Shown here: one piece after another, positions 58,519-59,929 of the stretch
How the letters are laid out: each line of letters starts with the position of its first letter
Numbering within the stretch: position 1 is the first letter of the stretch
Assembly: GCF_044324875.1 (NCBI RefSeq)
Contig: NZ_CP172185.1
Strand: one strand, 5' to 3'
Origin: Escherichia coli
GTDB taxonomy: Bacteria; Pseudomonadota; Gammaproteobacteria; Enterobacterales; Enterobacteriaceae
Length of the DNA: 64,000 bases
Notes under the pieces: generated by a model
What the model saw: the letters and a program-made list of their open reading frames with translations, nothing else
Databases searched by the model: none
Told to the model about the DNA's origin: nothing
Made by a program: the position numbers and the translations under genes

Positions 58519-58735
58519 TAACGCTACGCCTGTAAAGCGCACTGGCAGTTCCCTCTCCCCTCTGGGGAGGATCTATTGATATCAACTGATTTCAACAGAG
58601 CTAACCCCTCCCCCTTTAACCCCCTTTGAAATAAGATATCATCAGAAATTCCTTTTCTCTGGGGGTCAATCATATTCCATGAACATCAAGATGATTTTGG
58701 GGGCTATTCTGGGGGCTACATTTCAGGGGTAACTC

Positions 58736-59929
58736 ATGCCACTTACTGTTCGACAAATTGAGTCGGCTAAACCTGCTGACAAGGATTACAAACTTTCTGA
58801 CGGTCAGGGCCTTTATCTTCTTGTCAAAAAATCCGGTGCCCGTTACTGGAATCTGAAGTACCGGTTTGCCGGTAAGGAAAAGAAACTGGTGATTGGTGTC
58901 TATCCTGACATATCACTGGCTCAGGCTCGTCAGAAGCGGGATGAAGCACGTAAACTTCTGGCTGAAGGCAAAGATCCGTCGTATGAAAAACAGGCGCGAA
59001 AACTTGCCATCAGGGAAAGTATGGCCTGCACATTTCGCACCATTGCAGAGGAGCTGCTTACTCATATGGCACGTCGATGGACAACAGGTTACCAGGCAGA
59101 CCAGCGTGCAAGACTTGAAAATCATGTTTTCCCTGCTCTTGGAAACCGTCCTGTGACCGGGATCCGCCCCATGGAAATACTGAACGTCCTGAGGAGTATA
59201 GAAGAACAGGGAAAACTTGAAGCACTGCGTAAAACACGCCAGCTCTGTGCGCAGGTTTTTGATTATGCCATAGCAACAGGACGTGCAACCGTTAATCCGG
59301 CATCGACACTCAGCGGGGTACTGCTTCCTCCGGAAAAACAACAGCGCAGGACGCTTTCTGAAGAACAGATAGGAGCTTTCATGCATCAGATAACGGCTTC
59401 CGGAAATCTGATGTCGCTGGCAACGCGGATGCTGGTTTTGACTGCTGTTCGCACCGGAGAACTGCGACTGGCAACCTGGGACGAAATTAATTTCACGGAT
59501 GCCCTGTGGGTTATTCCGAAAGAAAGAATGAAAATGCGACGACCGCACGTTGTGCCGCTTTCACGCCAGGTACTGGCGTTACTGGAGGAGATAAAAACAC
59601 GCACTGAATCGCGTAATTCCGCCTTTATTATTCCCGGGGCATTCAGAAAAGATCTCCCGCGAAACCGGAAGTGTATCAATGAATTCCTTGAGCAGTCAGG
59701 CTGGCATGCCCTGACAACAGCCCACGGATTTCGTCATACCTTCAGCACCATTCTCCATGACCATGATTTCAGCTCAGCCTGGATTGAACTCCAGCTTGCC
59801 CATGTTGATAAAAACGTCATGCGTGGCACTTATAACCATGCGCAATATCTGGAGGGACGTCGTGAAATGATGCAGTGGTACGCTGATTACATTGATTCAC
59901 TTATGGAGAAAAAAGTACAAACGAAATAA
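58736..59929 (+). CDS. P4-type tyrosine recombinase / phage integrase, 397 aa
   Basis: N-terminal arm-binding motif (AKPADKDYKLSDGQGLYLLVKKSGARYWNLKYRF), C-terminal catalytic box (HGFRHTFSTIL ... RGTYNHAQY); SD AGGGG upstream. Confidence 0.9.
   Translation: MPLTVRQIESAKPADKDYKLSDGQGLYLLVKKSGARYWNLKYRFAGKEKKLVIGVYPDISLAQARQKRDEARKLLAEGKDPSYEKQARKLAIRESMACTFRTIAEELLTHMARRWTTGYQADQRARLENHVFPALGNRPVTGIRPMEILNVLRSIEEQGKLEALRKTRQLCAQVFDYAIATGRATVNPASTLSGVLLPPEKQQRRTLSEEQIGAFMHQITASGNLMSLATRMLVLTAVRTGELRLATWDEINFTDALWVIPKERMKMRRPHVVPLSRQVLALLEEIKTRTESRNSAFIIPGAFRKDLPRNRKCINEFLEQSGWHALTTAHGFRHTFSTILHDHDFSSAWIELQLAHVDKNVMRGTYNHAQYLEGRREMMQWYADYIDSLMEKKVQTK

Follow-up and report, generated by a model that had tools for sequence, protein, structure and literature searches.

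Why should an integrase gene lie directly behind glnH, where glnP is expected, with no tRNA gene at hand to have served as its target? The stretch of Escherichia coli DNA analysed here, 64 kb in all and hereafter called the window, has, in this order, ompX (minus strand), rhtA, dps, glnH, a 217-bp spacer (58519-58735) and an integrase ORF, and glnP is absent from its 64 kb. The original prediction had recognized an intact P4-family integrase 217 bp 3' of glnH, and the enzyme is indeed there, 397 aa long with its domains and catalytic residues in place. Two explanations stood side by side in that prediction, either that the element uses a non-tRNA site between glnH and glnP or that the region was rearranged. 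The features at the junction are as follows.

57772 to 58518, plus strand: glnH, the last host gene before the island; an intact ORF of 248 aa, annotated glnH in matching genomes
58551 to 58569, no strand assigned: left half of the glnH-glnP BoxC/TMECO repeat, CCCTCTCCCCTCTGGGGAG, placed by comparison with K-12, with the attL core palindrome at 58555-58569
58736 to 59929, plus strand: tyrosine integrase, DUF4102/P4-like, 397 aa and intact, recognized by its ORF, Pfam domains and catalytic residues

The junction is real and not an assembly chimera, since an integrase lies directly 3' of glnH in 18 of 5426 complete E. coli genomes and the same junction recurs in several draft assemblies. A tRNA or tRNA fragment at the junction is ruled out by ARAGORN, which found no tRNA or tmRNA in the whole 64 kb, and by a permissive Rfam scan, which matched no family in 57500-60400; that no tRNA 3' end is visible at 58519-58735 had already been noted. 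A chimera or a tRNA fragment at this point had been named as the findings that would speak against the prediction, and neither turned up.

Alignment of the region downstream of glnH to K-12, suggested at the outset as a way to place the breakpoint, puts it at 58569/58570, with host DNA up to 58569 and island DNA from 58570. With a slash marking the insertion point, the K-12 empty site reads ...CCCTCTCCCCTATGGGGAG / AGGATTAGGGTGAGGGG...glnP and the window ...CCCTCTCCCCTCTGGGGAG / GATCTATT...; read further outward, K-12 has glnH-TAA...GGCAGTTCCCTCTCCCCTATGGGGAG / AGGATTAGGGTGAGGGGCGC...ATG(glnP) and the window ...GGCAGTTCCCTCTCCCCTCTGGGGAG / GATCTATTGATATC... The last 15 host bases, 58555-58569, form a perfect palindrome, CTCCCC-TCT-GGGGAG. 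The window has a single occurrence of CCCCNNNGGGG, as does each of four K-12 stretches (7-12 kb), and every occurrence coincides with the insertion point. The window junction is a clean attL of a large E. coli genomic island in a non-tRNA target.

That target is the hairpin of a BoxC/PIT/TMECO repeat lying between glnH and glnP in K-12, and the insertion point is the hairpin's 3' edge. BoxC and PIT repeats were reportedly described by Bachellier in 1999 and by Hoyne in 2000. The window holds one BoxC-like site only, at 58551-58569. The TMECO consensus is CCCTCNCCC-N3-6-GGGNGAGGG-N3-GGGNGAGGG, with 23 strict copies in MG1655 (Holder et al. 2015, PMC4666352). The gln copy departs from it by a single base, GGA for GGG in the middle block, which accounts for its absence from the strict list in that paper. 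Copies of BoxC are about 36 bp long and nearly identical; the empty sites at ycjD, yhfS, yraQ and ytfQ fit the consensus, and two entries in Table 1 of PMC4666352, TMECO #9 (ycjD-fabI) and #15 (yhfS-frlR), match empty sites exactly. At the sstT-alx empty site of strain PAR the third G-block is missing and only the hairpin is present, which shows the hairpin to be enough for a target. By our own count from the published table, some 14 of the 23 K-12 TMECOs contain CCCC-N3-4-GGGGAG, and since E. coli has many BoxC copies, many landing sites are open to the element.

At unoccupied gln sites on metagenome contigs, the loop equivalent to window 58561-58563 reads TAT (16 cases), TCT (13) or GCC (5), and with the empty sites already polymorphic the loop was dropped as a marker of crossover. 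TCT and GCC recur as the loops at the two ends of islands of two types, that of strain 135 and ECCNB12-2 and that of strain 2/0. Such variation could be a trace of earlier integration and excision, or it could be ordinary polymorphism.

The enzyme itself is a P4-like (DUF4102) heterobivalent tyrosine integrase with arm-binding, core-binding and catalytic domains. Pfam places Arm-DNA-bind_3 (PF13356) at residues 3-87 (E 4.6e-28), Phage_int_M (PF22022) at 100-194 and Phage_integrase (PF00589) at 206-371, the last over almost the full model, and the catalytic signature is R239, H330-x-x-R333, H356 and Y366. The phage integrases compared were those of HK620, CUS-3 and the IntS type, to which identity is 40-43% over 97-99% of the length. 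Against the NCBIfam model PRK09692 the protein reaches 273 bits, short of the model's cutoff of 434 bits. Members of the P4-like family typically, though not by strict definition, integrate into a tRNA or tmRNA gene, in its 3' part. That is not seen here; neither the window nor the examined junctions of relatives contain a tRNA.

The island visible in the window is made up of the following features.

58570 to 64000, plus strand: the visible part of the island, which continues past the window end; its 5431 bp are 100% identical to the ycjD-fabI copy of strain 135
58570 to 58735, plus strand: integrase-proximal arm (P' arm of the inferred attP), starting GATCTATTGATATC; the same sequence lies 3' of the core at eight loci
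58698 to 58706 and 58710 to 58718, plus strand: two direct copies of TGGGGGCTA, candidate arm-type sites presumed to be bound by the integrase
60295 to 61350, plus strand: cargo, a TPR-repeat protein, annotated as a tetratricopeptide repeat protein in relatives, with weak NCBIfam TPR hits
61452 to 61832, minus strand: fragment of an ISAs1-family transposase, so annotated where the identical stretch occurs in strains 135 and Br_112_kylling
62395 to 63063, minus strand: cargo, an EcsC-family protein, from PF12787 (EcsC) on an identical gene
63425 to 63778, minus strand: cargo, a hypothetical protein present in every island copy, with no family match

The TGGGGGCTA pair lies about 130-150 bp from the core on the integrase side (window 58698 and 58710), and complete islands have a corresponding pair some 60-95 bp inward of their right end. 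Pairs on both sides are the layout expected of arm-type sites, and on sequence grounds we regard these repeats as candidates for that role. NCBIfam and PHROG searches of the window's four cargo ORFs returned nothing informative. Complete copies of this island type are poultry-associated and carry iol, ter and SPATE genes, and across complete genomes the islands with an integrase at least 98.8% identical in nucleotides span about 27-108 kb by their attL and attR coordinates. They are rich in IS elements and pseudogenes. The complete copy in strain 135 encodes, beyond the part seen in the window, an AlpA-like protein of 78 aa that matches PHROG excisionase families (E 6e-10) and is thus a candidate excisionase. 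Just inside the core, relatives show an inverted repeat, GTTCTGTTG...CAACAGAAC. In the window-type element (58578), which reads GATCTATT-GATATCAACTGATTTCAACAGAGC, some 11-13 bp of the left arm are missing, and the shortened arm may be a partly deleted site for an accessory protein.

The attR of the window's own island lies outside the window and is taken here from relatives. In all 18 complete genomes with the island at gln, a composite query joining the island right end to the glnP side found the right end fused to the other BoxC half and glnP. A direct repeat of 13-14 bp, (T)CCCCnnnGGGGAG, flanks the island wherever attR was read (gln, ycjD-fabI and ulaE). Strain 2/0 has a 58-kb pap/ireA island between glnH and glnP, with attL CCCTCTCCCCGCCGGGGAG / GATCTATT and attR CACTATTCCCCGCCGGGGAG / AGGATTAGGG. 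In ECCNB12-2, again at gln and with an integrase 98.8% identical to the window's in nucleotides, attR is TTCACCATTCCCCTCTGGGGAG / AGGATTAGGGTGAGGGGCGC...glnP. Strain 135 shows the same anatomy at both attL and attR of an island of about 99 kb at ycjD-fabI, as does strain G6/7 inside ulaE. From these ends, attP probably reads ...CA(C/T)(C/T)ATT-CCCC-nnn-GGGGAG-GAT(C/T)TATT... These features are those of a site-specific integrative island, the core direct repeat at both ends and the intact empty sites being found among relatives at gln, ycjD and ula. Of the two explanations first offered for the junction, the non-tRNA site in the glnH-glnP spacer stands, on the K-12 breakpoint, the direct repeats and the glnP fusion in 18 of 18 genomes, and the rearrangement falls away.

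In Br_112_kylling (NZ_CP182371.1) the attL of the gln island, on the glnH side at about 2.567 Mb, is 1.6 Mb away from the attR on the glnP side at about 4.195 Mb, and the glnH-side part of the island abuts yejO/narP, which points to a large rearrangement with its breakpoint inside the island.

The same element occupies other copies of the repeat. The exact 397-aa protein is found in six chromosomal contexts among 23 of the contigs that carry it, beside glnH, ycjD, yraQ (toward dolP), sstT (toward alx), ytfQ (toward ytfR) and gcvP, the gene identities having been confirmed by BLAST. Over the 5431 bp of island in the window, the copies at ycjD, yraQ, sstT and glnH are 100.000% identical to it, and those at gcvP and ytfQ differ by one base. 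Alleles 98.8% identical add yhfS (GPEC1040) and lptG (CM2) and occur again at ycjD and gln. Every one of these junctions reads CCCTC(T/G/A)CCCC, a loop of T(C/T/A)T or TTTT, then GGGGAG / GATCTATT, which is the same BoxC hairpin each time; the four-nucleotide loop is in use at sstT. In the corresponding empty sites the BoxC hairpins are intact. Zero to one difference in 5.4 kb across six loci argues for very recent movement, and, judged by these near-identical copies, one very recently mobile island type occupies at least eight BoxC copies. The integrase of the strain 2/0 type was seen at gln only (25 of 25 contigs) and that of the G6/7 type at ulaE only (31 of 31; listed in 7690 collection blocks); such one-locus alleles could have narrower specificity or simply be clonally inherited. 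Among species-representative genomes, the exact junction CCCCNNNGGGGAGGATYTATT gave eight matches in unrelated taxa (Thermofilum, Caulobacter, Sphingomonas and others), which we take as chance.

A second kind of target reduces the requirement to the palindrome. Integrases 79-84% identical to the window's in nucleotides sit inside ulaE at CTCCCCGCCGGGGAG, which is native coding sequence for L-P-A-G-E and not a BoxC repeat; the two targets have in common only the 15-bp palindrome. This makes a strong case that the palindrome itself is what the enzyme recognizes, and an equally strong one against homologous recombination. One protein, WP_053287687.1, is found in the ulaE palindrome in both orientations, adjoining the 3' part of ulaE in PKF11 and ulaD in AR_0085, and ulaE is disrupted in both strains. 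The attL loop is GCC either way round, and GCC/GGC is self-complementary save for the centre base.

Relatives in other genera have the following amino acid identities to the window's integrase.

Enterobacter asburiae: 77%
Serratia fonticola: 66%
Enterobacter kobei: 66%
Enterobacter ludwigii: 63% and 61%

These Enterobacter and Serratia integrases (61-77%) adjoin BoxC-like hairpins, ...CCCTCACCC(T/C)AACCCTCT-CCC-nnn-GGGAG / G..., with no tRNA, and a single E. ludwigii allele occurs in three contexts. Their third repeat block is on the integrase side, opposite to that in E. coli; with a symmetric core, the block can stand on either side. In E. ludwigii, ParM/StbA-like and Plasmid_stab_B partition genes directly follow the integrase, which suggests an integrative element with a plasmid-like phase. 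Further out, a Salmonella enterica integrase of 58% identity adjoins alkA, with no tRNA. The boundary of its island lies about 150 bp upstream of the integrase start, apparently at a different hairpin, GCCCCTTC-ttcactg-GAAGGGG, which may be another non-tRNA target in the wider family.

The closest known counterparts are the integrases of the tRNA-Phe pathogenicity islands, found directly after tRNA-Phe at both pheV and pheU in E. coli. They share the three-domain architecture and 53% amino acid identity with the window's enzyme, and a similar pair of TGGGGGC arm repeats lies just upstream of int. Their islands have the same kind of PAI backbone (a CP4-like module with cbtA, radC, antirestriction and DUF4942 genes) and likewise a target in more than one copy, pheV and pheU. 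They differ in the core, which is the tRNA 3' end in that group and a BoxC hairpin or the ulaE palindrome, with no tRNA, in the window's clade. By domain, identity between the two is 68% in the arm-binding part and 50-51% in the other two; the arm domain is the best conserved across the series, consistent with arm sites that were kept while the specificity for the core changed.

Taken together, junction anatomy, direct repeats, empty sites and identical elements at many loci, all read directly, make it highly probable that the island entered through its own P4-like integrase, by site-specific recombination into the BoxC hairpin with the core (T)CCCC-N3-4-GGGGAG. We propose a model in which a reaction of the lambda/P4 type would join attP (CACCATTCCCCTCTGGGGAGGATCTATT plus arms) to a BoxC-bearing target. 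Protomers of the window's integrase, the presumed catalyst, would sit on the two inverted half-sites CTCC(CC) as core-type sites, and strand exchange would probably take place across the loop and the adjoining C/G pairs. The repeat would thereby be split, leaving the C-rich half and a core beside glnH (attL) and the second core and the G-rich half beside glnP (attR). By analogy with relatives, the right end of the window's island should read ...CACCATTCCCCTCTGGGGAG / AGGATTAGGGTGAGGGG, followed by glnP. The circular form would run from the right end through CCCCTCTGGGGAG to GATCTATTGATATC, and excision may be helped by the AlpA-like factor.

The eight BoxC sites in E. coli bear on where strands are exchanged. 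The integrase end faces the C-rich side at all of them, and their loops are pyrimidine-rich (TCT, TTT, TAT, TTTT), like the TCT of attP, which suggests that the loop lies in the overlap and sets orientation. Use of both orientations at ulaE, with a GCC attL loop in each, suggests that a central mismatch is tolerated. As the loop is 3 nt, the usual overlap of 6-8 bp would extend into the stems, which is unusual.

Could homologous recombination between BoxC copies, dependent on RecA, instead have carried the island from locus to locus or brought it to glnH? Near-identical repeats of about 36 bp offer a substrate, and rearrangements through these islands do occur, as the 1.6-Mb separation in Br_112_kylling shows. 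Yet at every locus both junctions fall at the same nucleotide of the hairpin and the core is duplicated, an outcome that reciprocal exchange between 36-bp repeats would not give. Nor does such exchange agree with a ulaE site whose match to BoxC is limited to 15 bp and which takes the element in either orientation, with the sstT-alx copy devoid of the third G-block, or with conserved arm repeats on both sides of the core, and we consider this route very improbable. Still less credible, to the point of being nearly dismissed, is the notion of a strictly gln-specific element whose copies elsewhere are assembly errors or misjoins caused by the repeat. The strain 2/0 allele has been seen at gln alone, and several of the copies at other loci come from draft assemblies, but strain 135 is a closed genome with attL and attR both resolved at ycjD-fabI, further closed genomes place copies at gcvP (TUM9803), yhfS (GPEC1040) and lptG (CM2), and a repeat of about 36 bp cannot misjoin long-read assemblies.

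The abundance of IS elements and pseudogenes in these islands, together with two related alleles that appear fixed at one locus, might be read as the mark of an inactive relic, the island being immobile and its distribution the product of ancient events and vertical descent. An intact ORF with all catalytic residues, and the 0-1 differences between copies at six loci, run counter to this, and we hold it to be improbable, if a little less so than the RecA route. We return to integrase-mediated entry at the BoxC hairpin as the preferred account. It is tempting to speculate further that BoxC/TMECO repeats are dedicated, dispersed landing pads of a whole Enterobacterales integrase clade, and that cycles of integration and excision cause much of the instability and loop polymorphism at these repeats; this broader idea is tentative, and we would sooner bet against it than for it. 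It is even conceivable that BoxC copies owe something of their origin or spread to the integrases.

Mobile elements that land at dispersed palindromic repeats or hairpins are known, among them IS1397, ISKpn1 and IS621, which target REP/BIME sequences, and integrons, with their attC hairpins. Those insertion sequences rely on transposases of the DDE or DEDD type and integrons on a single strand in folded form, whereas the system in the window has a lambda-type heterobivalent tyrosine integrase and moves islands of 27-108 kb. The PAISt island of Streptomyces turgidiscabies (PMC4057263) differs too, having a single locus at the bacA 3' end, in another phylum, and no dispersed repeat.

The enzyme family and the type of island are ordinary, and the gln and ula loci are already published. 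In the accessible portions of two papers, gln (glnP-glnH) and ula (ulaE-ulaD) are among six insertion loci of papGII PAIs (Biggel et al. 2020, PMC7686366), and a PAI is placed between glnH and glnP (Royer et al. 2021, PMC8097792); the same portions report no shared palindromic core, no identity of the site with BoxC and no single element at many loci. The papGII islands use the same loci as the window's clade, and the papGII island of strain 2/0 at gln has an integrase 94% identical in amino acids to the window's, whereas the cargo of the window's island type (poultry-associated, iol, ter, SPATE) is different. Holder et al. (PMC4666352) found that genomic variability is raised near TMECOs, stated that no integrase or transposase was ever seen beside them and left the cause of the instability open; here, in contrast, these repeats are target sites. 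Searches by keyword and by literal core sequence, in which subscription journals are poorly covered, found no paper linking an integrase to BoxC and returned only the locus listings and the TMECO paper. Targeting of the repeat, mobility among many loci and the link to an orphan repeat thus appear to be unreported.

Beyond the locus itself, these findings give a sequence-level reason, in one system, for two odd non-tRNA PAI sites of E. coli, gln and ula. For BoxC/PIT/TMECO, an orphan repeat family for 30 years, they provide the first concrete tie to an enzyme of a mobile element and a candidate cause of the reported instability. Virulence and fitness islands of 27-108 kb (with pap, hly, iha, ter, iol or SPATE genes) would have a dozen or more possible chromosomal positions, which is relevant to island typing, to hotspot maps and to anyone in search of an integrase for which Enterobacterales offer many natural landing pads.

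A second variable region lies elsewhere in the window. At about 44353-48038 (plus strand), just upstream of ybiT, two ORFs match an MFS transporter and a TIM-barrel glycosidase. The version of this cluster in Br_112_kylling also has a LacI-family regulator beside ybiU, and the cluster and ybiU are both missing from that position in strains 2/0 and UTME-7. This is apparently a small islet that varies from strain to strain and has no connection with the glnH island.
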